A stretch of 58,591 nt of DNA from a virus (IMGVR_UViG_3300045999_002215:1-58591), one strand, 5' to 3'; counted from the first letter of the stretch, positions 1,248 to 54,665 are shown. A program made the numbers and translations. Notes: generated from the sequence alone by a model not told the origin.

Positions 1248-1259
1248 AAGGAGAACGTC

Positions 1260-1400: not shown

Positions 1401-1594
1401 GTATTGAAGCCAAACTTCTAAACCGTCTCAAGGCAGAACAACAGCAGTTCGCCGTTGACGCCTTGAGACGGCCCCAAGATCGCGATGCCTTTGAGTACGG
1501 GTATCGTGTGGGCGTGGTGGCCGGTTATGAAGCCGCCGTTAATGTACTCTTGAAACTTCTAGATGAGGAGAAACATAGTGACAACGACCTCTGA
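1397..1594 (+). CDS. Hypothetical head-module protein (65 aa)
   Basis: GTGA overlap; lies between portal and GroES-like gene. Confidence 0.65.
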   Translation: MSIEAKLLNRLKAEQQQFAVDALRRPQDRDAFEYGYRVGVVAGYEAAVNVLLKLLDEEKHSDNDL

Positions 1595-2003: not shown

Positions 2004-2017
2004 AAAGGAGATGAACA

Positions 2018-2986: not shown

Positions 2987-2992
2987 GAGGGC

Positions 2993-3021
2993 TTGCCTTT
3001 TCAACTTTTCCACCCTATACT
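2993..3021 (+). promoter_or_regulatory. Sigma70-like promoter TTGCCT-N17-TATACT
   Basis: Intergenic; same pattern recurs genome-wide. Confidence 0.7.
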
Positions 3022-3050
3022 TCAATCAATCGCTGGAAGGAGCGAGTAAC

Positions 3051-3581
3051 ATGACCGACGAACGCCTGAAGAAATCCGCTGGAGAAGGCCGCGAAAATAG
3101 AGCGATGCTAGATCGTTCTGTAACTGAGAATCGCGAAATTTCCGATGAAGAGCGGGTTGAAATGTTCCGTCAGCAGTTTTTTCAGTCCTCTCTACCGGAC
3201 TTGCCTAAAATCCCCGGCTGGCATATGTGCTGGCTGACTACCACTAACCCGCGCGACTCCATCCACATGCGGATGCGTCTGGGTTATGAACCCGTGAAGC
3301 CGGAAGACATTCCCGGCTGGGACTACGCCACGCTGAAGACCGGCGACTGGACGGGGTTCATTGGTGTTAATGAGATGCTCGCATTCAAGCTGCCGATTTC
3401 TCTCTATGAGAAGTACATGCTTGAGGCACATCACCATGCACCGTTGCGCGAGGAAGAGAAGCTCACCGACACGGCTGAGTTCTTGGAGCAGCAGGCGCGA
3501 TCCTCAAAGTCAAAGCTGCAGATTGGGGAAGGCAACTTGGAGATGGGACATGACCGAGAGGCCATGTTTGACCTCTCATGA
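3051..3581 (+). CDS. Conserved head-module hypothetical protein
   Basis: 176-aa ORF with AAGGAG RBS between scaffold and capsid genes. Confidence 0.7.
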   Translation: MTDERLKKSAGEGRENRAMLDRSVTENREISDEERVEMFRQQFFQSSLPDLPKIPGWHMCWLTTTNPRDSIHMRMRLGYEPVKPEDIPGWDYATLKTGDWTGFIGVNEMLAFKLPISLYEKYMLEAHHHAPLREEEKLTDTAEFLEQQARSSKSKLQIGEGNLEMGHDREAMFDLS

Positions 3582-33965: not shown

Positions 33966-34325
33966 TTAGTCGTCCGCCGTTTCGAAATCGTCGAAGTCCA
34001 TGCCCAGCTGACCGAAGTCCCACTTCTGAGCAGTGTACTGAAAGCTGTCTCGGTCCCAGCTGAGAACATTGATGATGTCCTCTTGCTCACCGATGATAGT
34101 CATGCAAACCGCGCAGAGCGTAGGGTCGCCGATCATCAAGAGGTGGTCTCCGGGATGCCAGTCTGCGAGTATGCGGCGAGCCTTAGCGATCATGCTGGGC
34201 TTGTCGTACGGTTTGCGAGGCTTACCGAACACCCCCTGCAACCGACCATAACGCCGCGCGTCAGACAGGTCTTTATTGTTGTCAACTTGAACGACAAACA
34301 CTGTTTGTGTATTAGCGTTTTGCAT
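33966..34325 (-). CDS. Hypothetical protein
   Basis: ATG 34325 overlaps the polymerase stop; 'GDHLLMIGDP' motif. Confidence 0.6.
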   Translation of the reverse strand: MQNANTQTVFVVQVDNNKDLSDARRYGRLQGVFGKPRKPYDKPSMIAKARRILADWHPGDHLLMIGDPTLCAVCMTIIGEQEDIINVLSWDRDSFQYTAQKWDFGQLGMDFDDFETADD

Positions 34326-36156
34326 TTTTGCTCTTCCTAGGGGCTTTGGGTGGCGGGGCAGCGAGTGCGTGCTCTTCTGCGGTGAGGTAAGCCGAGCACC
34401 CCACAGCAATGGCAATCTTGATAGCCTCTTTACGATACCATGCGTAGTCAAGGTCCGCCGGGTGGGTAACCTTGTCAAGCATCGTCATACAGGCCCGAGC
34501 ACCCTCGGTCTTGGGAACCTTGTTACCGTTCTTCACGTACCTAAGGGGCTCAAGGCCAACGTCGTTTGACTGATACCAGCGCACGACCTTGCCCAAGTAT
34601 TGCCCCATCTGCTCTCCCCCGCCAGTCACGTTACGCGCCGAAATGAAGTCACAGAACGGCGCAGCAGTGATGGTCTGCTGGAACGGTATCCCGTTGGCCA
34701 ACCATTGCCCCACAGCGTCGGAGCAGACCTGCGCCGTGGGGTTCTTCCGGAGCGAGAGAGGAGCGTAGATACCCTTCACCTTGAGTTCGCGATCAGGCTT
34801 AACCGCGATGTAGTTGTTCACGTCCTTCATAGCGAGAGCGCGATAGGGCGTGAACTCAAAGCTAAACCGTGACACCTCACTGAACTTGCTGACCACGCGC
34901 TGGATCAGCTCGTCCTTACCGCGCGGGTAACGGATAGCGATGCCGTCGGTGTTGGCTGACAGAGTTTCAGCCCCGGCGCGCTCAAGCCACTCAATCAGCA
35001 TGAGCAGCGTGAACTGGCCGGTGAGCGTCACCGCCAGCATTAGGTCAGGCGAGTACAACACCGAGTACTTGCTTGCCAGCTTGCCGAACGTGCCGTTCAG
35101 AGAGATCTTGAGCGTGGCGTCGGTGGTCTTGTCACCGGACCGCTTGGCTTCAAGGCGGCGACTGTAGATCTTGCGATACTCCCGAACGAAGTCCGATCCC
35201 AAGCTAGCAGGAACGAAACCGCACTCAAGAATGATGCTCGGGTAGAAGCTGGCTGCGTCAATATCGCACATGACGTAGTCCTCCCCGGCCACGTAGCAGA
35301 CCTGCTTGTCATGAACGCTGTGAATGCCGCCCACGCCGAGCTGATATTCACCGGTGCCGAACTTTACAGTCTGCAGCCCCAAGAAGTCTGGCAGCTGGAC
35401 GTGGCCCGTAACCCGGTTCATGTTGAACGTGTGAACCGCCACGCGGTCAAGCAACGCCTGAAGTTCGGCGTCCATGAACTTGAGGAAGCTCGGCGGGGTG
35501 TAGGTTACGGTCTTCGGCACCTCGTTGTCTTTGCGCTTGAGGCCCATGCTGGTGATGTACGCCTGCTCAGCCATTTGCGAGTCTGACTTGCTGCGCATGT
35601 CAACCCCGTAGCGACGGCTCATTTCAACGCGCAGCACGACCTCTTTCTCCAGCTGATTCAGCAGTTCGGCGGTCGTCTCTACGTCGTTGCGGCAATACTC
35701 CACCAGCATGGGCTCTTGCTCAACTGAGATCATTGCATCATGTGCTAGCGGCATGTCCTGCAGCTTGGGCATGTGCATCCGAGCGCCGTAGGCTTTCAAA
35801 CCCACGAACGAGGGAGCGACCTCAATTAAGTCAATGTCATCAGTCATCACGTCTCGCAGACTGAACTTACGCATCGCGGCCCAAGGCGCAACGCGGTTGG
35901 TAATGACGTCGTCTGCGATGCGCTTGATCTCGATCTCCGTGCGGCCAAGACAGAACGCGGACACAACGATGTTGTCAAACGACTTGCTGTTGAAGCCGAT
36001 GAACGTCGCGTCCGGTTGCTGCAAGAACCGCGTGAGCCGAGCCGGGGCATCATTTTCATGACGCCACAGCTCGAACCACTCCCCTGTTTCTACGTCTTTG
36101 GCGCAGAACAGGGTGCGGTTTGGCAGGGTCTCAGTGTCAAACACCCAAGTACTCAC
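34312..36156 (-). CDS. DNA polymerase, family B-like, with 3'-5' exonuclease
   Basis: ExoI 'FDTE', ExoII 'GFNSKSFD', ExoIII 'YCRND'; motif A 'DAASFYPS', B 'KISLNGTFGK', C 'NTDG'. Confidence 0.88.
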   Translation of the reverse strand: MSTWVFDTETLPNRTLFCAKDVETGEWFELWRHENDAPARLTRFLQQPDATFIGFNSKSFDNIVVSAFCLGRTEIEIKRIADDVITNRVAPWAAMRKFSLRDVMTDDIDLIEVAPSFVGLKAYGARMHMPKLQDMPLAHDAMISVEQEPMLVEYCRNDVETTAELLNQLEKEVVLRVEMSRRYGVDMRSKSDSQMAEQAYITSMGLKRKDNEVPKTVTYTPPSFLKFMDAELQALLDRVAVHTFNMNRVTGHVQLPDFLGLQTVKFGTGEYQLGVGGIHSVHDKQVCYVAGEDYVMCDIDAASFYPSIILECGFVPASLGSDFVREYRKIYSRRLEAKRSGDKTTDATLKISLNGTFGKLASKYSVLYSPDLMLAVTLTGQFTLLMLIEWLERAGAETLSANTDGIAIRYPRGKDELIQRVVSKFSEVSRFSFEFTPYRALAMKDVNNYIAVKPDRELKVKGIYAPLSLRKNPTAQVCSDAVGQWLANGIPFQQTITAAPFCDFISARNVTGGGEQMGQYLGKVVRWYQSNDVGLEPLRYVKNGNKVPKTEGARACMTMLDKVTHPADLDYAWYRKEAIKIAIAVGCSAYLTAEEHALAAPPPKAPRKSKNAKR

Positions 36157-36452
36157 AGCTTATCCGGGTTGCTAAAGCGCAGGTCTCCACGAGGCAGAGA
36201 TCTGGGCTCAGGTTGGCTCTTGTTGAGTTCGGCGTAGATCATCTCACGCTTCTTCTCAAGGCAGTGAATGGCCTTTTCAAGATCCTCAAGATCTTTCTCA
36301 AGACCGCCCTTCTTGCCGAGGCGCGCCATGTACTTGCTGGCATAACCGAGCAGGTAGTCGCCCCCGAAAATCATGTACACCAAGTCCCAATGCTGGAGGC
36401 CCGATTCGTTCTTGTAGTGGGTGCCGCCCACCTGCTTGTCATTCGCACTCAT
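36153..36452 (-). CDS. DUF3310 (T7 gp1.7/SaV-like) protein, possible nucleotide kinase
   Basis: 'QVGGTHYK', 'KYMAR..KKGG..DL...EKA'. Confidence 0.7.
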   Translation of the reverse strand: MSANDKQVGGTHYKNESGLQHWDLVYMIFGGDYLLGYASKYMARLGKKGGLEKDLEDLEKAIHCLEKKREMIYAELNKSQPEPRSLPRGDLRFSNPDKL

Positions 36453-36936
36453 GGCGCATCTCCTCGATCAGGTTGAACAGATGTTCTGCCGAGCCGGTCG
36501 GCTCGAGCTTCTTTGCGTAGCTGATGTAGGTGTCGTACACCGCCCGCATACGGCGATTGCCTAGGCTCATCTCGCGCAGGCAAAATAACGCCCCGTGGGC
36601 GATGTCGGCAAATTTGAGGGTGCGCGCGTCTTCCGGGCTAAGCTCAGGGAAGATGATGCCAGATTCAAGCATGAGCCGAAGCTCCAGCTTTTCAACCTGC
36701 TCGCCGATGCCGTATTCGCGCTTGGCCGGAGAGGGGATGTCCCCAGTCCGGTGCTCTGCCAGATCATGAAGCAGCGCGGCAATCAGCAGGGGGCTTGAGG
36801 CGCTCTGGTCAAGCATGAGCACCAAGCAGGCGACCCCGTGAGAGTGGTGACCCACCGTCTCATTTTGAAGGGTCGTGTAGGTGTGGAAGCGAGTTACCTC
36901 GGCACCAGCAAGTATGAAGTCAAGCACGTTCCGCAT
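36439..36936 (-). CDS. HD-domain 5'-deoxynucleotidase (YfbR-like)
   Basis: 'R.H', 'ETVGHHS', 'ALLHDLAE..TGDIPSP.K', 'KFAD'. Confidence 0.85.
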   Translation of the reverse strand: MRNVLDFILAGAEVTRFHTYTTLQNETVGHHSHGVACLVLMLDQSASSPLLIAALLHDLAEHRTGDIPSPAKREYGIGEQVEKLELRLMLESGIIFPELSPEDARTLKFADIAHGALFCLREMSLGNRRMRAVYDTYISYAKKLEPTGSAEHLFNLIEEMRHECE

Positions 36937-36999: not shown

Positions 37000-38007
37000 T
37001 CATTTCTTTCCCATAGTTTTCATCAGCTTACGTTTCTCACGGCGGTCGATCCAGTCAAACACCGCCTTGCGCCAATCATCAGCTCGGATCTGCTGAGCGT
37101 AGTAGCGTCCGTCACCGGACTGTGTCTTACGCGCTCGGCTGACCAGAGCCATCGGGCGAGCTGCGTAGTCAAAGAACGGGCTGGCGTAGCGGGTGCGCTC
37201 GTCAAACGGGTTTTCGCAGAACGCCTCGCACTCTTCAAGGAACCGCTCATAATCGCTGTCAATCATCAGCGGAGACGGCACTACCGCGCCCCGAGAGTAA
37301 TGGTCGTATTCTTCTGAGACAGGCGGACTCAGGAGGTACGGAGTGGCGTCGTACAGCTCCGTATACAGGTGAAGGTTATTGCTCACCTGACGGTAGACGC
37401 CGACCGGATGGCCTGTCGCCGCTGCCACGAACTCCTGCAACACGCTAAAGTGCACCGCGTTGGCCCCGTATGCGCCCCACCAGATGTCATTGCTGCGGTT
37501 GAACACGGTCATGTTCAAGCGACCTTTACGCACGTCAAACACAATCTGCGTGTTGCACGCCTTGTCCTTCGTGTTCTTGGCGAGGTCGGCGCTGTCCCAG
37601 ATTTGAATAACCGCCTGCCGCGTAGCGTGGTCGCGACGTAGCAGCCTGATAACTTCGGTAAGCTGGTCGCGCCCAAAGTGGTTACGCCAGCGATGGCCGT
37701 AAGCCGCGTTGAAGTTTGCGCCGTCGTCGCTAAAGTCACCCATGCGCGAGTTGAACTGCGTCAGGAACGCGACGTCCTTACGCCCTGCCAGCATCCAGAC
37801 GGACTCCATGAGGTGAAAGATCGGGTTTGCGTCTCGCCCCTCATGAAACAGAACCCTCTCTGTTGGTCGGGTGTAGACCGTGGTCACCATCTCCGGGTGC
37901 ACGATTGCCGGCCCGTTGCGAGTGTGCTCAGGCTCGAGGTTCAGCACCTTGAGCTTCCAGAATATCTCGCTGAACGCTTGGTTCACGTTACGAACTACAA
38001 GTTCCAT
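37000..38007 (-). CDS. Thymidylate-synthase-family dUMP hydroxymethyltransferase
   Basis: 'AAYGHRWR', 'DQL', 'TRQAV', catalytic Cys in 'KACN', 'NRSND', Asn in 'GANAVHF' (dUMP-type); clustered with hypermodification genes. Confidence 0.85.
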   Translation of the reverse strand: MELVVRNVNQAFSEIFWKLKVLNLEPEHTRNGPAIVHPEMVTTVYTRPTERVLFHEGRDANPIFHLMESVWMLAGRKDVAFLTQFNSRMGDFSDDGANFNAAYGHRWRNHFGRDQLTEVIRLLRRDHATRQAVIQIWDSADLAKNTKDKACNTQIVFDVRKGRLNMTVFNRSNDIWWGAYGANAVHFSVLQEFVAAATGHPVGVYRQVSNNLHLYTELYDATPYLLSPPVSEEYDHYSRGAVVPSPLMIDSDYERFLEECEAFCENPFDERTRYASPFFDYAARPMALVSRARKTQSGDGRYYAQQIRADDWRKAVFDWIDRREKRKLMKTMGKK

Positions 38008-38009
38008 AC

Positions 38010-38930
38010 TTAAAACTCCGTTTCAGGAATGTAGGTTGTTTTGGGTTTGCCTTCGCCTAGGACGGTGCGGCAATACTTGCTGAACTCACACATGCAGTTC
38101 TGAACGTCGTGCAGCGTGAGGTCGTCAATCTCAAGCTCATCTATCACCGCATCGCGGATCTTGACAAGCTCATAGTTGAAGTTGTCCTGCGTCCATCCGG
38201 CGCTCGGGCTGCGGTTGAGCAGGTAATTCAGCCCGCGACTGCTGCCGGGGCCGATGGGCGCGTAAGTGTTCAGGTCTGCCGCAGAACCGAGCTGAGTGCA
38301 ATAGGTGAGGTCGGCGGCGACCTGCCCTGCCATGAACGTGCTGATGCCAAAACTACCCGACAGCTCTTTGACAAAGTCAGAGATCAAAGGCAGCGTCCTG
38401 AATATTGCGTAGTCAATCTCATCACCGATGTTGAGCGCCGGGGCGATGATGTGCTTTGCCACGGCGAGAGACTTGACTCCGCCGGGGTCCATCTTGGTTG
38501 GGTAAACCATGTACGCGCCGGAGTAGACTTTGTTGCCTTCACCTTTGAGCCGCTCTACCGACTCTGAGAAGTCTTGCGGGTCAAAGTCACCGGCTGCGCG
38601 GAACAGAATGCCGTCGTCAATCAGCCTTTGCAGCGTCGGTGGCCAGTTGATGAGCCGCGTGATGAGCAGTATGAACCAGAGGTCTTGGCGGTTCTCGTTC
38701 GGTCTGATAATGCGCTCGATGATCCACTTGGTCACGCGGTCGTCGCGACGGCGGATGTTAGTGAACTTGTATTTGTCAAGCACCGGGTCTTTGGTGTACG
38801 GGCGCTCTCCCCCACCCTCACGGACGATGCGGATCACTTCACGTTCCCAGATGAAGTAGAGGAGCGCGGGCATTGAGCACACGGTGGTCGGGTTGGGCAT
38901 GGGGTAGGGAGCGGTGTTACGCATTTTCAT
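38010..38930 (-). CDS. aGPT-Pplase1 family protein (5-hmdU DNA kinase helical component)
   Basis: 'DPVL..YKFTNIRR.DDR', 'FMAGQVAADL', 'GPGS.RGL', 'DVQNCMCEFSKY'. Confidence 0.82.
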   Translation of the reverse strand: MKMRNTAPYPMPNPTTVCSMPALLYFIWEREVIRIVREGGGERPYTKDPVLDKYKFTNIRRRDDRVTKWIIERIIRPNENRQDLWFILLITRLINWPPTLQRLIDDGILFRAAGDFDPQDFSESVERLKGEGNKVYSGAYMVYPTKMDPGGVKSLAVAKHIIAPALNIGDEIDYAIFRTLPLISDFVKELSGSFGISTFMAGQVAADLTYCTQLGSAADLNTYAPIGPGSSRGLNYLLNRSPSAGWTQDNFNYELVKIRDAVIDELEIDDLTLHDVQNCMCEFSKYCRTVLGEGKPKTTYIPETEF

Positions 38931-39498
38931 ATTCCCGGATGATTTCAAGTAGCGCGGGGTGAGTGTTTTTGTGGTCGATCAGGCGCACGTCGTAGCCGCC
39001 TTCTTTGCGCAGGTTCTTGTAGCAGTTGACCACAGACTCAAACTTGTCAATCAAGTTCTTGGGGTCAAACGCTTTCTCGTTACCGGCTTCCAAGCGCCGA
39101 CCCTTCACCCTCTCAATGCAGAGGTCCTGCGGGGTGTCGAGGAACGCATAAGCGTCACAGCCTGTGGGGTGGATGGTTTGCGTTACCTGCCCTGCGAGAC
39201 CGCTCGCTGAGACCAAAGCGCCTTCATACAGCACGTGACCTAGCGGGTGCGCCTTCATGATCTTCTCGGCAATCTCCGCCTGCGTCTTGATGGCGTCTGT
39301 GCCGCCGCAAGTGTTGTCGTATTTGCCCACGACGAACACCGGAGCCGTGACACCCGCCGTGGTCAGGTCCAGCCGGTAACCCGCGATCTTGTTACCGCTC
39401 ATCAGCATCTGGTTGGGGTAGCCGTTCAGGAACTCCCGCATAGCGGTCGTCTTGCCCGAGCCGAACGTGCCCGCGATTCTGAGTATGACGTGTTTCAT
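38917..39498 (-). CDS. P-loop 5-hmdU DNA kinase
   Basis: 'GTFGSGKTT', 'GKY...CGGTD', 'VLYEG', 'LDTP...C..RV..RR'. Confidence 0.8.
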   Translation of the reverse strand: MKHVILRIAGTFGSGKTTAMREFLNGYPNQMLMSGNKIAGYRLDLTTAGVTAPVFVVGKYDNTCGGTDAIKTQAEIAEKIMKAHPLGHVLYEGALVSASGLAGQVTQTIHPTGCDAYAFLDTPQDLCIERVKGRRLEAGNEKAFDPKNLIDKFESVVNCYKNLRKEGGYDVRLIDHKNTHPALLEIIREYENA

Positions 39499-40499
39499 AG
39501 GAAGTGTTCCCCTCTGAACGGCATCCCCGTCTCCGGGAACAGCGCCGCCTTTTGCTTGATCGTGAGTCGCGGACCCTTGGCGCACTCGTCGCGCAACCAT
39601 TCGGGCAGCAACTCGCTGCGGATGTCTTTGAACGTCTCGGTATACTTTGACTGGCCGCGAGACTCAGCCCACTCAATCCGCTCCCAGGCCATGTCGGCGT
39701 AAACGCCGGGGTAGCGGCGACCGAAGAAGTGGTTCTTGAACGTGCACAGGTTGCTCTCCATGGTGAACTTGCTGACGTCGGGAACGCCGGTGTGCATCGT
39801 TTTGAACGCCCCCAGAAAGATGTCAGCCCTCTCGTTGAGAAAGCCGCACATCTTCTTGAAGTTCTCGTAGTTGCCGTCAAACCCGTTGTTGGCGCGCTTG
39901 TCCCATACGAGATTATCAAACCCGAGCAGGAACAGCATGCCGTTGCGGTGCGACTTGCTGCCTGACTTGTCTTCAAAGAGAAGGTCGTCGCAGTCGGCCC
40001 CAAAGCCGTTCAGGAACACGTACTCCAAATAGGAGAAAGATGACAAGCGCCCAAACGAGTAGTAGCGGTTGCGCACGAGCTTCCAAAGCTCTTCGTACGT
40101 CTTACCCGTGAGCATGGCCTCTTGAGAGCCGTGTTCCTCCACCAGCCGAGCGTAAACCCTGATGGCTTCAACGGTGTCGCGCTTTTGGTAACGGCGGTCA
40201 GTGTCAAACTGCAGGGTGTCCCACTCAGCATTGAACCAGTCTTCAAACCGCTTGAGAGTTGCGCTCGCCGGGGGAACCGACGGGAGCTGATCAAACAGGC
40301 GGAGCGACGTGATGGGGTTCTGCGTCATGCCGTTCAAGAAGGCGAACCACAGCCGCTGCTCGGCATCCCAGTTGTTGCGAGTGGCAAGCTCAGGCATGTA
40401 AAGGTAAACCAGCCCCGGCATGACCCCGTGGCTCAAGTTCAGGTCGTACAGCTTGTAGAAGTAACTCCCGCGCGTGTCTACGGTGCGATAGTCAATCAT
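39495..40499 (-). CDS. aGPT-Pplase2 / amino acid:DNA transferase
   Basis: HhH-like 'FGRLSSFSYLEY', 'FDTDRRYQK', 'ESNLCTFK', 'RRYPGVY'. Confidence 0.8.
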   Translation of the reverse strand: MIDYRTVDTRGSYFYKLYDLNLSHGVMPGLVYLYMPELATRNNWDAEQRLWFAFLNGMTQNPITSLRLFDQLPSVPPASATLKRFEDWFNAEWDTLQFDTDRRYQKRDTVEAIRVYARLVEEHGSQEAMLTGKTYEELWKLVRNRYYSFGRLSSFSYLEYVFLNGFGADCDDLLFEDKSGSKSHRNGMLFLLGFDNLVWDKRANNGFDGNYENFKKMCGFLNERADIFLGAFKTMHTGVPDVSKFTMESNLCTFKNHFFGRRYPGVYADMAWERIEWAESRGQSKYTETFKDIRSELLPEWLRDECAKGPRLTIKQKAALFPETGMPFRGEHFL

Positions 40500-40680
40500 C
40501 TTGATACTCCTCGTTATCCAGTTTCTTTATCAGAGCGGGAACTTTGCGCCACTTGTATATGCTCGCGGTCGAGACGCTATAAAGAGCTGCAGCGTTTTTC
40601 ACACCAAAACGCTCGGCAGAGCGCAAAGCCCCAATACGAAGGTCGTCGGTAAGCCCGTAGTCAGGATGTAACCCGGTCAT
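40492..40680 (-). CDS. Small HTH protein
   Basis: 'GVKNAAALYSVSTASIYKWR' HTH pattern. Confidence 0.6.
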   Translation of the reverse strand: MTGLHPDYGLTDDLRIGALRSAERFGVKNAAALYSVSTASIYKWRKVPALIKKLDNEEYQDD

Positions 40681-40847: not shown

Positions 40848-41092
40848 CTGCGCCCCCTGTTCCAAGCCAGCCGCGATATTTTGTTCGCCAGATCGTCGAG
40901 CTCCTCAACGCTAATATCGCGATTGTCAAGCAGTGCCGTATAGATCGCCGCCGTCAACCGCTTGCTGGGCAACACCGCCGACCCTTGAATTATCGCAGCT
41001 ACCGCCTCTGACTGCACGTCACGTACCGGCATCAGCCTCTCTTGTTTACGTCCGAATATCATCGTCATTATCTCCTTCAGATAACTGTTCAT
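40844..41092 (-). CDS. Hypothetical protein
   Basis: ATGA-coupled 82-aa ORF. Confidence 0.55.
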   Translation of the reverse strand: MNSYLKEIMTMIFGRKQERLMPVRDVQSEAVAAIIQGSAVLPSKRLTAAIYTALLDNRDISVEELDDLANKISRLAWNRGRR

Positions 41093-43221
41093 AGTCCGTA
41101 TTTGCCCCGCTCGGTCGCCTCCACCACAGCCTCGTTCACACGCAGGTAATGGTTAGCGCGGCCTTGCGGTTTTTCAAGCTCTACCCGCTCTAGCGAGCCG
41201 TCATTGAGCAGCGACTCGATGGCGCGCTCTTTGCGCTCCTGCGAGCATTTGACACCGCCCTTGAGCACCGGGAGCCGTTCGTAGTACGAGCGGGACTTGC
41301 CGGGGTCGCGGCGCACAAGTTCAATCAGGTCGTTGCAGATGCGCGACCACTGCTCTTGCTCCTTCTGTTCCTTGCGGTCTTCCTTAAGCTGCACTCGTTC
41401 TCCGGGCTTGAGCGGGCGAGCCACCGAGTGAGAGAACCAGATCTCTTTGTCGTAGCCCAACACATCCTTATGCACCTGCTTGTTTGACACGAGGTCAAAG
41501 GTAAGCTCTGAGAACTCGACCGGGAAGCGAACCTTGGTTGCCTTGAGCACACGCGGCGCTTCTTGGTCCTCGCCATCTTTGAACACCGTGTACACGCCCT
41601 GCGCGTCACCTGTCCAGGCCGAAGCCCCGCGCGGTGACAAGTAGTCCGACTCGCCGGAGCCGAGCGCCTTGGCGGTGTGGCTGACGATGATGATTGGGAA
41701 CGCGCTGAAAGCCTGCTTTATGTAAGCCATCGCGCGACCAACTTCTGCGTTGTCGTTTTCATTCTCAAGGTCAAACACCGCGTTCGCGGTATCAAACACG
41801 ACCAGCGGGAGAGCCTCATAAGCTGTGCCGTCCGCCTTCTCGTTACCTACCGTCCACTCCTTGTACTCCTCAGCAACCTGCGCGACTATCTTCGGGTCCA
41901 TCCTCTGGGCGCTGATGACGCGAACCCTCTCGTCAAAGTCAGACACGTGCATCCCGGTGTAGCCCCAAGAGTAGAGCGAGTAGATGACGCGCTGAACCTG
42001 CACAACAGACTCAGTGATGATGATAACATTGCGCCGCACTGCGGGCTTGAGAGCGTAGTCGTGCGGGCAGAGGTGCGCTGTGGCAAGGGCCATGGGCACG
42101 ATGAGCGTAGTCTTACCGACACCGGGCGCACCAGCAACCACGTTCACGCCGGTGCTCATAAAGTCGTCGTAGATGTATTCAAAGACCGTGACCTGCCCCG
42201 CGCCGGACAACACTGAACGCTTGAGGCTGAGGGGATGTTCATCGCCGGAGGGTGCGGTCTCCCCGCTGGCAACGGTGGAGGCAGGCGTGTTGCCCGACCA
42301 TCCGTTGTCGATAGCCATGCGGAAGATGCTGCGGTAAGTGATTGAGTGGGGCCGGTCAATGTCGCGCTCCCACTTGCGCCTCTGAGCTGCGGCATCAAAC
42401 TTGTCGCTGGTTGCTGCCCACTCAGTCCAGATCTTGTAACCGTTCTCGCCGTAAGGCTTGAGTACCATGCCCACATTGACCCACGTTGTGTAGTCGTCGG
42501 CGTCTACGTGCTTCAGCGCCGAGCGCAGGTCGTCAAAGGTTTGCGCCGTGGCGACCGGAACACCTCCCCGCTCGGTCAGTGAGTAATTCACCGGAGCTCG
42601 AGCCTTGTCAGCAATCAGAGTGGGCAGCGGAGAGGGTCGCGCCGGTGACGACTGGCTGAGCGGGGAGCGGCCCTGGGCCCAACGGTAGTCGCCCGACGGT
42701 CCCAGCGTGGGCGCAACGCAGATATAACCCTGATGCTTGAGGTCTAGTCCCTTGCCGAGTGTGCCGGGGTAGGTCATCGCCGCGTCAGCCCGGAACAGCC
42801 GGTGCTCTCCTCCGCCCTGCGTGATTGCCGTGCAGTCCGAGTGCAACACCCCGTGCTCAGCTTCTATTGCCGACAGAGACTCCTGTCCGCCGTTCTGCGG
42901 GTCAATGTCTAGCGCCAACAGCCCGGAGTCTGCGAGGCTGATGCCTATGCCCGCCTCGGGGTCCGTGGCCCACCAGTCCCGGATAGTCTGTTCGTTAATG
43001 CTCGCGTCTTGGTGTCCGTGCGGCACAAGGCTTGACTGCGGGTGCTTACCCGGCTTGTGGCCCTTCTCATTATTGGGTCGCCCGCAGCGACACTGACCTT
43101 GTTCGTCAACTGACCATACCGGCAACACGTGCCAGCCGAGCCGCGCATACGCCAGTGCGTAATCGAGAGGCTTGGGCTGTTCGTTTACGGCCCAGATGTG
43201 TTTGGGCGGCTTACTGCTCAT
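41089..43221 (-). CDS. Primase-polymerase (Prim-Pol) + PriCT-2 + RecA-like helicase + C-terminal domain
   Basis: 'LDIDP', 'TQGGGEH', 'DLK..GY'; 'DDYTTWVNVGM.L'; Walker A 'GAPGVGKT', 'VVFDT', 'PRGASAW'. Confidence 0.88.
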   Translation of the reverse strand: MSSKPPKHIWAVNEQPKPLDYALAYARLGWHVLPVWSVDEQGQCRCGRPNNEKGHKPGKHPQSSLVPHGHQDASINEQTIRDWWATDPEAGIGISLADSGLLALDIDPQNGGQESLSAIEAEHGVLHSDCTAITQGGGEHRLFRADAAMTYPGTLGKGLDLKHQGYICVAPTLGPSGDYRWAQGRSPLSQSSPARPSPLPTLIADKARAPVNYSLTERGGVPVATAQTFDDLRSALKHVDADDYTTWVNVGMVLKPYGENGYKIWTEWAATSDKFDAAAQRRKWERDIDRPHSITYRSIFRMAIDNGWSGNTPASTVASGETAPSGDEHPLSLKRSVLSGAGQVTVFEYIYDDFMSTGVNVVAGAPGVGKTTLIVPMALATAHLCPHDYALKPAVRRNVIIITESVVQVQRVIYSLYSWGYTGMHVSDFDERVRVISAQRMDPKIVAQVAEEYKEWTVGNEKADGTAYEALPLVVFDTANAVFDLENENDNAEVGRAMAYIKQAFSAFPIIIVSHTAKALGSGESDYLSPRGASAWTGDAQGVYTVFKDGEDQEAPRVLKATKVRFPVEFSELTFDLVSNKQVHKDVLGYDKEIWFSHSVARPLKPGERVQLKEDRKEQKEQEQWSRICNDLIELVRRDPGKSRSYYERLPVLKGGVKCSQERKERAIESLLNDGSLERVELEKPQGRANHYLRVNEAVVEATERGKYGL

Positions 43222-44759
43222 TGGGTATCTCCAAAGTGCTCCTCAATCACATTCCAATAGCGTCCGGACTTGCGCACTGTGACCGCGTAGGGTTGACGAG
43301 CGCCTTTCATCTGCCACGATAGTGAACGGGCGGGGGAAGGTAGATTTACGGCCAACGCGCGACTGTTGAAGAACTCCAGCGTGGCGCGGTTGGGGGACTC
43401 GGTGTTGATGAACTGAGAGGCGTCGATGCGTGCGCCTTCGGGGGTGGTGCAGGTGTACTGCACGAGCAGCACCGGGGCGTCGGGTGCGCGCCGGGTAGGT
43501 ATCGCCACGCTGTTGACTGCGTGAACCTGAGCGATTATGGCGGAGCCCTCGGTGGCCTCCTTGCCGGTCATGGGGTCGATGGGGGCGAGGGTGCGCACAC
43601 CGGGGTAAATCTTGCGCTCGCGCCGGACGTAAGGCTTACTCGGCACAGCCTCAACTTCAACGCGACCCTGCTCGCGGTAGAACGTCTCGTACATGTCTAC
43701 GCCGCCGAGCCGGATGAGGTTGCCCACGTAGTCAAGCACGAGGCAGTTCTTTTTGCTCGGGTGTAGGCGTGTGCCGCGACCCTGAATCTGAACCCACAGA
43801 GACGATGAAAGCGTGGGGCGGAGGCAAACAATGCAGTCGAGCGCCGGGAAGTCGAAGCCCGTGGTGATCATGTCAACCGAGCACAGGACCCGGACCTCTC
43901 CCGAGCCGAACCGGGCGAACGCTGCGTCGCGCTGGTCTTGGCGGAGACCGCCGTGCAAGACCTCGGTTGTCCAGCCGGTCACATCATTGATGATCTGCGC
44001 TGTGCGCTGAGCTGCGGCCACGGTGGGGCAGTAAACGGCGACGTGGTTGCGCTTCCCGGCCAGAGAGACCATCGACTCAGCCACGGCATGCAACCAGTTC
44101 TCGGTCTGCATCTCTTCTACTTCAGACTGCGTGAAGTCGCCCTGCACTGTGACTTCGTCAACGTCGAGCTGAATGGCCGTCTCAACACCGACCAACGGGC
44201 AGAGCCATCCGTCTGCCACAGCGCGAGGCACAGTGTAGTTGTAGGCGAGCTTGTCGAACCAGAACTGCTCTCCGTCGCCGTAAATGGTTCCGTTGTCCAT
44301 TCGCCAAGGCGTGGCGGTCATAGCTACGCGCTGGGCCTGGGGGTAACGGCGGAGGATCGTCTCGTAGAGCGTGGGTTCACCCTCGTTGTGCGGCACACGG
44401 TGCGCCTCGTCGATGATGACGAGGTCCGGCGCTTTGAGTTCCGGCAGCATACCCATCATGCTCTGGATGGTGCCGAACGTAACCCCGCCGAACGTGTCTT
44501 TGCGGTTCAAACCTGCGCAAACTATGGCGGGTTCCATGCCTGTGTAACGGGTGTATGTGGCCGCGTTCTGACCCACGAGCTGTTGAACGTGCGTGAGAGC
44601 CCAAGCCTGTTTGCCGGCAAGGCGGCAGTGCTCAGCGAGGTCTGCAATGATGAGCGACTTACCCGTGCCGGTGGCAAGCTGCAAAACAGGATTAGCGCCC
44701 CGGCCCAATGATTTTAGGGCGGCGGTGACAGCTTCTTGTTGGTAGGGGCGCAGTTGCAT
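43218..44759 (-). CDS. Superfamily 2 DEAH helicase
   Basis: 'LRPYQ', 'ATGTGKS', 'DEAH', 'TATP', 'TGFDFP', 'QIQGRGTR'. Confidence 0.92.
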   Translation of the reverse strand: MQLRPYQQEAVTAALKSLGRGANPVLQLATGTGKSLIIADLAEHCRLAGKQAWALTHVQQLVGQNAATYTRYTGMEPAIVCAGLNRKDTFGGVTFGTIQSMMGMLPELKAPDLVIIDEAHRVPHNEGEPTLYETILRRYPQAQRVAMTATPWRMDNGTIYGDGEQFWFDKLAYNYTVPRAVADGWLCPLVGVETAIQLDVDEVTVQGDFTQSEVEEMQTENWLHAVAESMVSLAGKRNHVAVYCPTVAAAQRTAQIINDVTGWTTEVLHGGLRQDQRDAAFARFGSGEVRVLCSVDMITTGFDFPALDCIVCLRPTLSSSLWVQIQGRGTRLHPSKKNCLVLDYVGNLIRLGGVDMYETFYREQGRVEVEAVPSKPYVRRERKIYPGVRTLAPIDPMTGKEATEGSAIIAQVHAVNSVAIPTRRAPDAPVLLVQYTCTTPEGARIDASQFINTESPNRATLEFFNSRALAVNLPSPARSLSWQMKGARQPYAVTVRKSGRYWNVIEEHFGDTQ

Positions 44760-44787
44760 ACGGTCTCCAGTTATACGTTATCCGGTG

Positions 44788-44883
44788 ATTATGGGCGCGA
44801 TTTTCTCAAAAGGCAAGCGGAAAAACTTTTTTGGCTTAAAAGCAAAAATAACGCTTGCCTTCCACGTTGAATGAAACTATAGT
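44788..44883. promoter_or_regulatory. Back-to-back divergent promoters
   Basis: - strand TTGCCT(44816-44811)-N17-CATAAT; + strand TTGCCT(44855)-N17-TATAGT; A/T-tract spacer between them. Confidence 0.75.
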
Positions 44884-44933
44884 CATTCCATGGCCCACAG
44901 GGGTCGGATAACTCGATAACTGGAGACACGCAC

Positions 44934-45191
44934 ATGGCCGCTCAAACCTTCGCCCAGATCGCAAACGTAGCTAACGCGCTGCCCGTTGGTCGTCCCGAAG
45001 ACCTCGCTGACCGCGTCAAGTACATGGTTTATTGCGCCGAGCTGAACGCTAACGAAACGATCCACTTGGACAAAGCCGCCAGCGAAGCCGACTTCGACGT
45101 CCTGGCTCTCGCCTCGTTGGAAAGCAACCTCTGCTTCTGCGAAGACTATGAAGTCTGCAAGTGGTTCGCCGAGAACGACGTCGCATTCTGA
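44934..45191 (+). CDS. Early hypothetical protein
   Basis: Preceded by the ATAACTGGAGA RBS motif. Confidence 0.7.
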   Translation: MAAQTFAQIANVANALPVGRPEDLADRVKYMVYCAELNANETIHLDKAASEADFDVLALASLESNLCFCEDYEVCKWFAENDVAF

Positions 45192-45218
45192 ACTTAACCC
45201 GATAACTGGAGAACTGAC

Positions 45219-45446
45219 ATGGCCCTTCGCCAAATCACCATGGACCTCGACAGCCCCTACGTCAAGACCTACAAGACCGAGCAGAACCTGATGAAGCGTA
45301 TTGAAGAAGAACGCGACATGTACCCCGACACCGACGACCGCTTCATAGTCGTGTGCACCCCGAAAGGTCGCTGGACCGCCATCGTGGTCCTTGACAAAGC
45401 GAAGGGCGGGTACATTGGCCGCTACGAATCGTTCATGAAGGTGTGA
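45219..45446 (+). CDS. Early hypothetical protein
   Basis: Preceded by ATAACTGGAGA. Confidence 0.7.
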   Translation: MALRQITMDLDSPYVKTYKTEQNLMKRIEEERDMYPDTDDRFIVVCTPKGRWTAIVVLDKAKGGYIGRYESFMKV

Positions 45447-45516
45447 CCTTCCGGTAACCAGCCCTGCGGGGCTGGCATCCAGAAGGCCAACCCTATAACT
45501 GGAGAAGGAGACTCCC

Positions 45517-45774
45517 ATGGCTTACCGTTTCCCTAAAGCTGGCACCTCTACTGCCAAAATGGTCACCCCGGAGACCCTGGTGCTTCTGGCCAACCCTGGC
45601 CGCGCGCCAACCCTGAGCGAAGCCCGCGCACATGCGCGCAACTGGCTCCGCTCCTCTACCTCGGGAGCCACCGGCCTCTACTCGGTCTGCCTGCTCGCAG
45701 ACGACGACCTCGCGATCGTCTTCTTTGGCATCCGGCGCGCTCAGCGCATCGTCTGGAACTTCGGGAAGGCATGA
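45517..45774 (+). CDS. Early hypothetical protein
   Basis: Preceded by ATAACTGGAGA. Confidence 0.7.
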   Translation: MAYRFPKAGTSTAKMVTPETLVLLANPGRAPTLSEARAHARNWLRSSTSGATGLYSVCLLADDDLAIVFFGIRRAQRIVWNFGKA

Positions 45775-45786
45775 GCCGACCCCTGC

Positions 45787-45837
45787 AGGGGGCGTGGAAA
45801 ATGCCCCCTTTACTTTCTTGAAAGACCGCCCTATACT
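45787..45837 (+). promoter_or_regulatory. Terminator hairpin overlapping promoter TTTACT-N17-TATACT
   Basis: AGGGGGC/GCCCCCT stem whose T-rich tail supplies the -35 box. Confidence 0.55.
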
Positions 45838-45870
45838 CCACTTCAATAACTCGATAACTGGAGAACTCCG

Positions 45871-46770
45871 ATGACTGCATCCACAACCATCAACGACATC
45901 TTCGGCGACCTGCCCGATGACGAGCCGCCGATGCGCTTCAAACTGTCGCGCACTGCTGACGGCGCTACCACCATGCGCCGCGTGTACCGTGAGACCTGCT
46001 CTAAGTGTGGCGGGGACGGCATGTGGCATGGGCACGGTGACTGCACCGGCGACGGACGCTGCACCATGTGTGATGGCGTCGGCTACAAGGTGTTCAAGAC
46101 CTCTCCCGAATCCCGCGCAAAGTCTCGCGACGCTGCCGCTGCAAAGCGCAACGCCAAAGAAACTGAGGTCCGCGCAGCTTACGAGGCTTGGCTGGCCGCT
46201 AACCCGGCAGAAGCCGAGTGGCTGCGTGAAGCCGCTGGTCGTGGTCTTGAGTTCGCCGCGTCTCTCCTCGAGAGCCTGCGCACCTACGGCAGCTTTACCG
46301 AGCGTCAGGAAGTCGCTGTGCGCAATGCTACCGAGCGGTCTCAGGCTCGCAAGGCTGAATGGGCTGCTGAAAAGGCCGCGCGTGAGTCCGCAGCTCCCGC
46401 CGTAGATGCCGCTCGTCTTGAGCAGTCGTTTCTCAAGGCCAAGGCCAACGGCCTGAAATGGCCGCGCATCACCCTGGGCGACATGGTTATCAAGCCCGCC
46501 GGTGACACCAGCAAGAACCCTGGCGCGCTCTACGTCACTGAGTCCGGCCAGTACTTGGGTAAGGTCATGGGTGGTCGGTTCTTCAAGGTCCGCGAATGCG
46601 ACTCCGCGCAGGAAGGCATTGTGGTAAACCTCATCAACGACCCCGTGGGTGCGGCTGAGGCTTACGGTCACCTGACCGGCCACTGCTGCATCTGCAATCG
46701 CGAACTGACCAACCCCGAGTCTGTGGATCGCGGCATCGGACCCATCTGCGCCGACAAGTTCGGCTGGTAA
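45871..46770 (+). CDS. Zn-finger protein with C-terminal DUF6011-like domain
   Basis: CxxCxGxG repeats; 'CCICNRELTNPESVDRGIGPIC'. Confidence 0.75.
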   Translation: MTASTTINDIFGDLPDDEPPMRFKLSRTADGATTMRRVYRETCSKCGGDGMWHGHGDCTGDGRCTMCDGVGYKVFKTSPESRAKSRDAAAAKRNAKETEVRAAYEAWLAANPAEAEWLREAAGRGLEFAASLLESLRTYGSFTERQEVAVRNATERSQARKAEWAAEKAARESAAPAVDAARLEQSFLKAKANGLKWPRITLGDMVIKPAGDTSKNPGALYVTESGQYLGKVMGGRFFKVRECDSAQEGIVVNLINDPVGAAEAYGHLTGHCCICNRELTNPESVDRGIGPICADKFGW

Positions 46771-46784
46771 CAGGAGAACCAAAA

Positions 46785-46889
46785 ATGAAATACCGCATTC
46801 GTGACATCCTCGCTGACCTGATTGCCTGCATCGCAATCTTCGCCATCGGCTACGGGTTGTTCTTCATCGGCCACGGTCTCGGCTGGTGA
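46785..46889 (+). CDS. 34-aa membrane peptide
   Basis: CAGGAGA RBS; MKYRIRDILADLIACIAIFAIGYGLFFIGHGLGW. Confidence 0.55.
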   Translation: MKYRIRDILADLIACIAIFAIGYGLFFIGHGLGW

Positions 46890-46919
46890 CCTCAGAAACT
46901 TATCGCTTGGAGAATACCA

Positions 46920-47315
46920 ATGAAGAGGCTAAACTTCTCAGCCATGACGACCCCGCAGTTGGTGTCGTTCTACAATGAACACAGCCCTAAGCCGGTGACT
47001 CGGTTTAGCGACCGCAAGACTGCCGAACGGAGGTGCGCGGAGTTGTTTTGCAGTATGAAGCCCGCAGACGTTCTTAGTCGCCCCAACATGCAGACCTCGC
47101 TCAAACTCGACCGCACCATTACCTGCGTCGAGACCGGCGAGACCTGGAAGAACGCTCACCAGATGTGGGTCGCCCACCCTGACTGGATGAACAGCGGCCA
47201 ACAAGACCGCATGACCTCTCAACTATACGCTGCGGCCAAGGCTTGCGTTCAGCGCCGGGTCGCTGTCAACGGTCGCACATTCATGCTCGTCAACGTGCCG
47301 GAGAAAACTCAATGA
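46920..47315 (+). CDS. Hypothetical DNA-binding-like protein
   Basis: GGAGA RBS; 'RFSDRKTAERR' and 'ITCVETGETW' segments. Confidence 0.6.
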   Translation: MKRLNFSAMTTPQLVSFYNEHSPKPVTRFSDRKTAERRCAELFCSMKPADVLSRPNMQTSLKLDRTITCVETGETWKNAHQMWVAHPDWMNSGQQDRMTSQLYAAAKACVQRRVAVNGRTFMLVNVPEKTQ

Positions 47316-47548
47316 CCTCTGGCGAACCCATAAATGAAGACCCGGAACTGCTTGAGGTGATCTGGTTCACCAACAGCCGAGGTTCTGTAGGTATTGCGGC
47401 TGTCAAGACCGCGTATAGCGGTGTCAAGTTCTACGTAAGCCCGGTTGACGGCTTTAACGAGGCCGTGGACTCCAACCTCATCATGAACCTGGGCGCTCGG
47501 TTTCCTGACGCTGCAGGGCACGCTCTTTTCAACGGAAGGTACGCATGA
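47312..47548 (+). CDS. Hypothetical protein
   Basis: ATGA-coupled on both sides. Confidence 0.55.
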   Translation: MTSGEPINEDPELLEVIWFTNSRGSVGIAAVKTAYSGVKFYVSPVDGFNEAVDSNLIMNLGARFPDAAGHALFNGRYA

Positions 47549-48504
47549 CCAACACCATATTCCCCGTTCACTCGCTTGACCGTAACGTCATTGAGTGGGA
47601 AAGCTACCTGGGCGCAATGACGCCATGGGAGAACCGCAGTGGTCTCTGGTTCAAACGCGACGACTACTTCGCGCCGCTCGGCTACGGTGGTCCTAACGGC
47701 TCCAAGATGCGCCAACTCATCTGGTACGTAAACAAGTTTCGCGCAGGCAAGTCTCACATCGTCACCGGGGCGAGCATCCAGTCTCCGCAACTGAGCATGA
47801 GCGCGATCGTCGGGCAGCACTACGGTTTGCCGGCTCGGCAGGTCGTGTACAGCAAACCCGACACCGTCCTGCGTCATGAGAACCCGCGCATCGCCTACGG
47901 CTTCGGCGCAGAGTTTGAATACGCCAATGGCCCCTATAACCCGATCATCCAGCGCCGCGTGGCCGACCTCACCCAAGACAAGTCTCTCGTGGTTGAGTAC
48001 GGCATCACGGTTCCGCATGACAGGTACGACCCCGAAGCTGTACGCAAGTTCCACGAGGTCGGCGCGAACCAGCTGAGCAACATCCCCGATGACGTGCGTC
48101 GGCTCATCATGCCTGCGGGTTCATGCAACTCCCTGACCAGCGTCATGCTCGGTCTGCTGCGCGACCCGAAGAACGTAGAAGAGCTGTTCACTGTCGGCAT
48201 CGGGCCGGACAAGCTGCCCTGGGTGCGTGCTCGCCTGCAGTACATCGGCCTGGACGTAGACCATCTGCCGTTCAAATGGCGGCATTACAGCCTGCACGAC
48301 AGCGGGTTCAGCAAGTACTCCGACCACTTCAAAGGCGAGCAGTATGACGGCATCAACTTCCACCCGACTTACGAGGCGAAGATGTGGCGCTGGCTCACCC
48401 AGAACGATCAGCTCGACTACGACGACAGCACTGCGTTCTGGGTTGTGGGCTCAGCGCCCAACCCCAAGGTGATTGAACCGTTCTACACGAGGAGAGCAGC
48501 ATGA
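47545..48504 (+). CDS. PLP-dependent enzyme (fold type II), probable DNA-base decarboxylase
   Basis: 'LWFKRDD...NGSKMRQ' (Schiff-base Lys), 'PAGSCNS' loop, 'HPTYEAK'. Confidence 0.8.
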   Translation: MTNTIFPVHSLDRNVIEWESYLGAMTPWENRSGLWFKRDDYFAPLGYGGPNGSKMRQLIWYVNKFRAGKSHIVTGASIQSPQLSMSAIVGQHYGLPARQVVYSKPDTVLRHENPRIAYGFGAEFEYANGPYNPIIQRRVADLTQDKSLVVEYGITVPHDRYDPEAVRKFHEVGANQLSNIPDDVRRLIMPAGSCNSLTSVMLGLLRDPKNVEELFTVGIGPDKLPWVRARLQYIGLDVDHLPFKWRHYSLHDSGFSKYSDHFKGEQYDGINFHPTYEAKMWRWLTQNDQLDYDDSTAFWVVGSAPNPKVIEPFYTRRAA

Positions 48505-48683
48505 CACCTACCAAGACCTGCCCCGAGTGCGGCGGAACCGGAACTCAGACTTACGAGAGGGTTATCCGCGCCTCTTTCTCTAACCCGCAAGGTTACATCG
48601 AGGAGTATGAAGACGACTGCGATAACTGCGGCGGTGTGGGCATTGTTGATGACGATGACTTCGATGATGAGGAGGATGAATAA
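48501..48683 (+). CDS. Small DnaJ-type Zn-finger protein
   Basis: 'CPECGGTG' and 'CDNCGGVG', acidic tail. Confidence 0.65.
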   Translation: MTPTKTCPECGGTGTQTYERVIRASFSNPQGYIEEYEDDCDNCGGVGIVDDDDFDDEEDE

Positions 48684-54508: not shown

Positions 54509-54665
54509 AGAGAAGCCCGTCTGGGACAAGAAGCGTCCGAAGTCTCTTGGCGAGAGCAAACCGCTCTCCGACGCCAAGAAGGCCACCGCCAAGAGCATGG
54601 CTGAGAAGGCCGGTCGCCCTTACCCCAACCTCGTTGACAACATGCGAGCCGCGAGGAAGAAATGA
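54498..54665 (+). CDS. Small basic protein (55 aa)
   Basis: MPSKEKPVWDKKRPK...AGRPYPNLVDNMRAARKK; overlaps both neighbours; not in the ORF track. Confidence 0.65.
   Translation: MPSKEKPVWDKKRPKSLGESKPLSDAKKATAKSMAEKAGRPYPNLVDNMRAARKK

Follow-up and report, generated by a model that had tools for sequence, protein, structure and literature searches.

A putative thymidine-hypermodification cassette with ViI-type transferase and PLP enzyme genes in an uncultured phage

Does the uncultured phage genome IMGVR_UViG_3300045999_002215 encode a pathway that replaces the thymine of its DNA with a hypermodified base, and, if so, which amino acid would be attached? The question is raised by four adjacent genes in this stretch of 58,591 bases (the window), which had been predicted to encode a deoxyuridine monophosphate (dUMP) hydroxymethylase, an aGPT-Pplase1, a P-loop kinase and an aGPT-Pplase2, together with a more distant pyridoxal phosphate (PLP) enzyme gene. 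Pfam, PHROG and pairwise matches recovered all four genes, and the PLP enzyme gene was present as well (Table 1). On the basis of these homologies, we consider it most likely that thymine is replaced via 5-hydroxymethyl-deoxyuridine (5-hmdU), part of which is then hypermodified after replication by chemistry of the type known from phage ViI. The general route, in which 5-hmdU in DNA would be acted on by the kinase, the transferase and the PLP enzyme in turn, has a probability of about 0.85 in our estimate, whereas the specific serine-derived outcome of the ViI route, 5-aminoethoxymethyl-dU (5-NeOmdU), is proposed tentatively, at slightly under even odds.

The core operon

The genes form a compact minus-strand operon in the order amino-acid:DNA transferase (AADT, the aGPT-Pplase2), kinase, Pplase1, thymidylate synthase (TS) homologue, HD phosphohydrolase, DUF3310 protein and DNA polymerase. 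The TS homologue shares 45% identity along its whole length with gp17 of phage YuA (E 7e-91), which is annotated in its record as a putative deoxyuridylate hydroxymethyltransferase. Among solved structures, cytidine monophosphate (CMP) 5-hydroxymethylases were the best relatives (E 5e-19), with true thymidylate synthases behind (E 4e-14). In the alignment to these structures, the protein carries Asn at a column that holds Asp in the CMP enzyme and Asn in thymidylate synthase, and both tryptophans of the thymidylate synthase IWDEW stretch align to M and F; the Asn is of the uracil type. At the level of homology, the TS homologue is thus a putative dUMP hydroxymethylase that would supply 5-hmdU.

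The Pplase1 is 28% identical to PaMx11 gp50 (E 4e-23). The kinase shares 31% identity with gp49, the 5-hmdU DNA kinase of PaMx11 (E 1e-18), and has the Walker A sequence GTFGSGKT, while no similarity to the ViI kinase gp243 was detected (E 0.62). Translation of the kinase probably begins at the ATG at 39498, overlapping the stop codon of AADT, and its relatives align from about residue 30-36 of the longer open reading frame (ORF) on. We therefore assign the protein as a putative P-loop 5-hmdU DNA kinase, despite a profile score below the Pfam cut-off that is weighed below. Of the remaining operon genes, the HD protein has 32% identity to YuA gp18 (E 4e-12) and occupies the position of PaMx11 gp52, which makes it a candidate for thymidine nucleotide depletion. 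The DUF3310 protein, with 41% identity to PaMx11 gp53 and 47% to YuA gp20, is weakly similar to the C-terminus of the T7 nucleotide kinase gp1.7 (E 8e-4), and is a candidate nucleotide-kinase-like accessory protein. The DNA polymerase, at most 40% identical to any cultured phage polymerase, would be expected to incorporate 5-hmdUTP.

The original prediction had seen no radical S-adenosylmethionine (radical-SAM) or flavin gene, and this observation held. Six-frame searches of the window with PF04055 (radical-SAM) and PF01266 (DAO-type flavin) gave no match at E ≤ 1, and tblastn with YuA gp12, PaMx11 gp47 and PaMx11 gp48 gave nothing at E ≤ 0.1. The GNAT profile PF00583 had one match, at 12.9 bits (cut-off 20.7), inside an 853-aa gene; a hidden GNAT enzyme there was rejected, since the Pfam scan of that gene shows a tail-lysozyme domain only. 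Homologues of PaMx11 gp56 and ViI gp243 were not found in the window. Without radical-SAM, DAO-type flavin, GNAT (above cut-off) and gp12/gp47/gp48 homologues, the pathways of M6 (5-NedU) and PaMx11 (5-AcNmdU) were rejected, and a TET/JBP route to hmU was rejected because the window contains no TET/JBP match. The genes that are present appear to make up a complete 5-hmdU-based hypermodification set with the enzyme classes of ViI and without the tailoring enzymes of M6 and PaMx11, as had been proposed. We counted the absence of radical-SAM, flavin, GNAT (above cut-off) and TET/JBP genes in favour of a ViI-type pathway.

The transferase, the PLP enzyme and their uncultured relatives

The transferase is 28% identical to the ViI serine transferase gp247 (E 2e-29), 36% identical to MONT_42 of the Glutamicibacter phage Montesquieu (E 7e-53), and about 36% identical to the gene 3 products of Coopervirus mycobacteriophages such as Lolalove (E 2e-48), its closest cultured relatives by tblastn. 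Comparison with PaMx11 gp46 gave no significant sequence similarity (E 0.24). Since a sequence search of solved structures also yielded no significant match to the transferase, a fold search was used. An AlphaFold2 model (predicted local distance difference test, pLDDT, 89.7; predicted template-modelling score, pTM, 0.88) matched PaMx11 gp46 best in Foldseek (E 0.027; template-modelling scores, TM, 0.53/0.61), and VIA-align superposed the two over 247 residues with Z 15.6 and a root-mean-square deviation of 4.0 Å, the next entry reaching Z 9.5.

In the 15599 Pplase2, E222 and T223 are described as metal ligands and C226 as the catalytic residue; the donor is determined by G227 and D238, whose YuA equivalents K248 and Y257 bind the glycine carboxylate, and two pocket residues are reported to suffice for a switch of donor (PMC13458397). 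The motif E243-T244-V-L-C247-K248...Y257 of YuA gp10 is matched in the window's transferase by E248-S249-N-L-C252-T253...R262-Y263-P264, which is invariant in 74 relatives. Judged from this alignment, the transferase retains its catalytic apparatus as well as the carboxylate-binding Tyr, and the catalytic Cys and metal ligands identify the protein as a putative Pplase2. The retention of the Tyr favours an amino-acid donor with a carboxylate over a diamine.

The phylogeny of the transferase against serine-specific enzymes, which the original prediction had put forward as a check, placed it elsewhere. A quick maximum-likelihood tree of 29 transferases, for which the tool itself issued a long-branch warning, comprised the window's sequence, 19 uncultured relatives hand-picked from 74 full-length ones, four Ackermannviridae-type sequences including ViI, and Montesquieu, Lolalove, YuA, PaMx11 and PhiW-14. 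PhiW-14, YuA and PaMx11 were split from all others with a Shimodaira-Hasegawa-like approximate likelihood ratio test (SH-aLRT) support of 99. The other group falls into three clades whose branching order the tree does not resolve: the uncultured clade (support 85), the actinophage pair and, on a long branch, the ViI clade (support 100). The transferase thus appears to be related to the serine enzyme, yet not to belong within its clade.

The PLP enzyme is 35% identical to ViI gp226 across nearly its full length (E 4e-68) and 32% identical to Montesquieu MONT_41 (E 2e-35), while its similarity to YuA gp11, of the YuA/M6 type, is marginal (E 0.002). Its Lys54, invariant in all 12 aligned PLP enzymes (the window's and those of 11 relatives), aligns with K92 of gp226, which has been named as the probable aldimine lysine of an enzyme shown to decarboxylate O-SerT in DNA (PMC8989533). 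An AlphaFold2 model (pLDDT 77.5) had 1j0a, a 1-aminocyclopropane-1-carboxylate (ACC) deaminase homologue, as its top Foldseek match (E 3.8e-11), and the same entry is mentioned as a template for gp226 by Lee et al. (PMC8989533). These features point to a gp226-like decarboxylase with its aldimine lysine in place. Enzymes of this type are reported to require a free alpha-amine (PMC8989533), so that the adduct would be linked through the side chain of the amino acid, as with serine.

A scan of IMG/VR gave 84 confirmed relatives, of which 80 were retained, so that the same cassette is present in at least 80 contigs, with transferases 56-75% identical to that of the window. Where at least 3.2 kb of downstream sequence is available (72 loci), the kinase, Pplase1 and TS homologue are co-directional in all but one locus (L072), and with such recurrence chance is no issue. 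The position of the PLP gene was assessed wherever the upstream sequence reached 1.3 kb or more (66 loci). It lies on the strand of the transferase within 400 nt upstream in 36 of these and 0.5-3 kb upstream in a further 17 (53 co-directional in all), on the opposite strand in one, and is missing from 12. We counted this same-strand linkage, together with the adjacency of the two genes in Montesquieu, for a ViI-type pathway. In the window, the PLP gene is 7 kb from the AADT gene and on the other strand because the block from primase to PLP gene is inverted with respect to most of the relatives. Both edges of the block bear a 21-nt inverted repeat (40493-40513 and 48599-48619; 86% complementary), which may have arisen by chance, as the region contains 10 such pairs in all. 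The small gene orf131, which weakly matches PaMx11 gp45 (E 0.001), lies directly upstream of the PLP gene in the relatives, or of the AADT gene where the PLP gene is lost.

Five records with PLP-less cassettes were probed along their entire length (including L060/G002, L038/G005, L029/L086 G004 and L041/L085 G001). The PLP gene is missing from two records rated 100% complete (57.5 and 60.8 kb) and from one rated 81% complete; one PLP-less record retains a 26-residue C-terminal remnant of the gene directly upstream of the transferase. A 101.8 kb record contains a PLP-minus cassette and a second cassette copy with the PLP gene, and is probably two related genomes joined. In the tree, the PLP-less transferases nest among PLP-bearing ones, so the loss of the PLP gene appears to be secondary. 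Between primase and transferase of the PLP-less L060 there are only ORFs of at most 171 aa, with no evident replacement enzyme, and the long gaps between PLP and transferase genes in L033 and L080 hold no extra tailoring gene, only a weak DHH match, a DUF932 protein and a helicase.

Table 1. Features of the window, with coordinates and the evidence for each
Feature	Coordinates	Strand	Evidence or remarks
Amino-acid:DNA transferase AADT (aGPT-Pplase2)	39495-40499	-	334 aa; PF18724 ADDT 64.4 bits (cut-off 26.2)
P-loop 5-hmdU DNA kinase, putative	38917-39498 (ORF open to 39600, 227 aa)	-	homology to PaMx11 gp49
aGPT-Pplase1 / HMUDK_hel, putative accessory helical protein	38010-38948	-	312 aa; PF18723 134.4 bits (cut-off 25)
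dUMP hydroxymethylase, putative (thymidylate synthase superfamily)	37000-38007	-	335 aa; Pfam Thymidylat_synt 76.5 bits; phrog_5131 E 7.6e-106
Fold-type II PLP enzyme, ViI gp226 homologue	47545-48504	+	319 aa; Pfam PALP only 17.7 bits (cut-off 35)
HD-domain phosphohydrolase	36439-36936	-	PF12917 YfbR-like, 36.9 bits
DUF3310 protein	36153-36452	-	PF11753, 27.5 bits
DNA polymerase, last large operon gene	34312-36156	-	phrog_1252 E 2e-160
Small conserved gene heading the cassette (orf131)	46920-47315	+	phrog_4730 E 8.5e-8
Inverted block (primase, helicase, orf211, orf447, orf131, PLP)	41089-48504		comparison with gene order and strands in L006, L014, L015, L020 and L025
Pam3_gp32-like protein, adjoining the polymerase gene	33966-34478	-	PF23992, 63.5 bits
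GroES-like Cpn10 protein, within the head module	1563-2003	+	Pfam 29.6 bits; 60% identity to RLK protein
853-aa gene between large terminase and portal	54662-57223	+	phage tail lysozyme domain, residues 182-302
Whole IMG/VR virus record, uncultured phage	58,591 bases		CheckV: 100% complete

The proposed pathway and its alternatives

In the proposed pathway, the HD phosphohydrolase would lower the thymidine nucleotide pool, and the TS homologue would convert dUMP to 5-hmdUMP, which the DUF3310 protein and/or host kinases would bring to the triphosphate for insertion into DNA by the phage polymerase. The P-loop kinase would then convert 5-hmdU in DNA to 5-PmdU, and the transferase, with Cys252 and a metal on E248/S249, would eliminate the phosphate and attach the side chain of an amino acid in its place, with serine, which would give O-SerT, as the leading candidate. 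Finally, the gp226-like PLP enzyme would decarboxylate the adduct to 5-aminoethoxymethyl-dU or a close analogue; for the ViI route, adduct masses of 345 u before and 301 u after the PLP step are given (PMC8989533). Serine is favoured because the only characterised member of the transferase superclade is the ViI serine transferase, because the PLP partner resembles an orthologue of gp226 and is far closer to it than to the YuA/M6 type, and because a side-chain linkage is implied and the carboxylate-binding Tyr is kept.

Several observations weigh against this reading. The profile search that had been proposed as a check recovered the Pplase1 and the transferase well above their cut-offs, but the kinase reached only 24.1 bits on PF18748 HMUDK_HMUD1, under the Pfam cut-off of 27. 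No dCMP deaminase was found in the window, unlike in PaMx11, YuA and 15599. The transferase groups with its uncultured relatives, outside the serine-specific ViI/Ackermannviridae clade and with the branching between clades unresolved, and the PF18724 model missed the Montesquieu homologue at E ≤ 0.01, which shows how divergent this clade is. The residue after the catalytic Cys, which specifies the donor in YuA and 15599, is Thr253 here, as compared with Lys in the glycine enzymes, Gly in 15599 and apparently Trp in ViI, and the ViI motif is offset by a one-residue register relative to the window's transferase. Furthermore, relatives of gp226 handle different adducts in M6 and in ViI (PMC8989533), so that the donor cannot be deduced from the PLP enzyme. 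As the transferase stands outside the serine clade, 5-NeOmdU is a best guess rather than a deduction from orthology. The original prediction, which had left the choice between a ViI-like product and an undescribed adduct, was thus borne out as to the ViI enzyme classes, while the position of the transferase outside the serine clade speaks against simply reading the ViI product from them.

The same enzymology with another donor, such as threonine, homoserine, cysteine or a diamino acid joined via the amine of its side chain, would lead to an undescribed decarboxylated adduct. We regard this as possible though not favoured: the transferase has a clade of its own, at 28% identity to gp247 and with a differing residue after the catalytic Cys, and a change of two pocket residues can switch the donor in a family with many uncharacterised network clusters (PMC13458397), but nothing points to any specific alternative, and serine is the amino acid handled both by the one characterised superclade member and by the closest characterised PLP partner. 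The role of the PLP enzyme is a separate matter. Its closest solved folds are those of ACC deaminase and D-cysteine desulfhydrase, so that it could instead perform another fold-type II reaction (elimination or deamination) or supply the donor from a free metabolite, in which case the final base would be the intact amino-acid adduct or another derivative. In line with this, two of the three probed records with an estimated completeness of at least 90% have no PLP match and another record has only the 26-residue remnant, and complete relatives without the gene imply that the transferase product alone is viable. Nevertheless, we consider such a role improbable, given the near full-length identity to gp226, a proven O-SerT decarboxylase acting in DNA, the 1j0a template named for both proteins, and the tight operon linkage with the transferase in the relatives.

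A further reading is that the TS homologue simply makes dTMP, like an ordinary synthase, or that the cassette is inactive, so that virion DNA contains canonical thymine. Hydroxymethylase and synthase are not separable with certainty by sequence alone. However, the protein is close to the YuA-type enzyme of phages known as modified, nearer to solved hydroxymethylases than to thymidylate synthases and altered at the IWDEW tryptophans, and the kinase, Pplase1 and TS genes stay co-directional in nearly all relatives, with invariant catalytic residues, which leaves canonical thymine a very slim chance. The pathway through 5-hmdU, kinase, transferase and PLP enzyme thus remains our preferred explanation, with serine as its tentative donor.

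Known systems and genome context

In ViI, the 5-NeOmdU pathway comprises the kinases gp67/gp243, the Pplase1 gp160, the transferase gp247 and the decarboxylase gp226 (PMC5889632, PMC8989533). The window shares its enzyme classes, with homologous transferase and PLP enzymes, a conserved aldimine Lys and no additional tailoring enzyme. It differs in that the kinase is unrelated to gp243 by sequence, the transferase falls outside the ViI clade, the core genes form one compact operon in PaMx11 order whereas those of ViI are dispersed, and the genome of about 58 kb is podovirus-like, while ViI is a 157 kb myovirus. With PaMx11, YuA and M6, the window shares the gene order from AADT through kinase, Pplase1, TS homologue, HD and DUF3310 proteins to polymerase, which equals PaMx11 gp46-gp55 minus the FAD and acetyltransferase genes. 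Those phages combine a glycine transferase with FAD/acetyltransferase or PLP/radical-SAM enzymes, whereas the window is without radical-SAM, FAD, acetyltransferase and dCMP deaminase genes. Since the kinase, Pplase1, TS homologue, HD protein and gene order are YuA/PaMx11-like and the transferase and PLP enzyme ViI/Montesquieu-like, the cassette is, by these comparisons, a mosaic of a YuA/PaMx11-type core with a ViI/Montesquieu-type transferase and PLP enzyme.

The cultured phage Montesquieu has adjacent Pplase2 and PLP genes, P-loop proteins, a TS/hydroxymethylase and a Pplase1, and its transferase has the ES-x-L-C-T motif in common with that of the window. Unlike the window, it is an actinobacterial phage with another gene order and a DNA polymerase I; literature searches found no characterised modification for its cluster. 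The Coopervirus phages (Lolalove genes 2-4) have a related transferase next to a P-loop kinase, but a 'hydroxylase' instead of the TS homologue, and no Mycobacterium phage was among the 10 genera named in the PLP enzyme matches, which include six further names. In the stretch of Lolalove viewed (785-3462), hydroxylase, Pplase2 and P-loop kinase genes stand beside the terminase, with no TS homologue; the gene set suggests a route of in-situ T oxidation to an undescribed adduct.

The transferases of PhiW-14 (putrescine) and SH-Ab 15599 (diaminopropane) belong to the same family, with the same logic of catalytic Cys and metal-binding motif (PMC13458397), but fall in the other superclade and use free diamine donors with no PLP step. 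Pplase2 homologues of the PhiW-14 type occur in several small cultured phages (Rhodoferax phage P26218 and Rhizobium and Bordetella phages). Rhodoferax phage P26218 is a podovirus, and short-tailed phages with Pplase2 genes would hence not be unprecedented. A 2025 note reportedly describes a five-gene system in a Rhodococcus phage. Among IMG/VR contigs, those with 5-HMUDK and Pplase2 co-occur with PLP enzymes in many combinations (PMC8989533), and many clusters of the Pplase2 sequence-similarity network are uncharacterised (Li et al., PMC13458397). Our literature searches, which did not cover figures and supplements, found no paper on the present phage lineage. The enzyme combination is thus already known in general terms; the additions are an uncharacterised transferase clade and the natural PLP-plus/PLP-minus variation.

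The record is labelled linear, but its ends overlap by 126 identical nt (bases 2-127 and 58466-58591, base 1 alone being mismatched), which makes it a closed circular assembly with some 58,465 unique bases; the portal gene, in halves at 57216-58589 and 6-1247, is intact across the junction. The GC content is 0.56-0.62 along the entire record. Nucleotide searches for near cultured relatives returned short thymidylate synthase matches only, along with one uncultured record, in agreement with the predicted new lineage without close cultured relatives. The top nucleotide match of the TS homologue was Pseudanabaena phage Pam3. Between the helicase and the PLP block lie orf211 and orf447 (44883-46836, minus strand; orf447 at 45493-46836), which have no Pfam or PHROG family and no Atlas match (for orf447, none at ≥0.9). 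Their GC content at third codon positions (GC3) is below that of their neighbours, and partial homologues occur in four relatives only. A 299-aa alternative ORF (45871-46770) runs on the strand opposite to orf447. ARAGORN called a 92-nt tRNA-Ala(ggc) at 9252-9343 on the minus strand, antisense within an 804-aa structural ORF, which is probably a false positive.

The virion module had been described as P22-like; we found nothing specific to P22, and the closest cultured structural relatives are the Caulobacter phages RW/RLK/KcrB/GB2A (Riverwalk cluster), with identities of 81% for the major capsid protein, 58% and 45% for the two halves of the portal, and 56% for the adaptor. Phage RLK was matched by 15 of the 31 structural ORFs tested. 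Neither the transferase nor the TS homologue was found in RLK, so the phages closest to the window in structure do not share its modification and replication module. An adaptor of SU10 type (Pfam 94.1 bits), the sole family-level clue to the tail and of podovirus type, a PHROG match to a 'DNA ejection protein' and homologues labelled tail tubular protein A in other phages suggest a short-tailed, podovirus-like virion. The structural ORFs scanned had no match to tail-tube or sheath families, and tape-measure matches were weak and partial (E 2e-5, 5.8e-7 and 4e-4; at most about 165 residues), on the 853-aa and a 560-aa ORF. The 853-aa gene, which is unusually located, also matches segments of very large virion proteins.

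Thymidine hypermodification protects DNA against many restriction enzymes and other nucleases, and every further transferase specificity means a new DNA chemistry. The present analysis would widen the range of a known pathway by an uncultured podovirus-like lineage, abundant in metagenomes, and points to a modular cassette in which a PaMx11-type core is joined to a ViI-type transferase and decarboxylase. The gain lies in breadth and in a candidate enzyme for specificity studies, as the enzyme classes and their logic are already established and no new principle is involved. The natural PLP-plus/PLP-minus pairs could be used to probe the contribution of decarboxylation. It is rather unlikely, but conceivable, that the transferase has an undescribed donor specificity and that the sisters with and without the PLP gene make two DNAs, one with an amine and the other with an intact zwitterionic amino-acid adduct. 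If true, the tailoring step would be switched on and off naturally within a single phage population, plausibly under pressure from host defences able to recognise one of the two forms.

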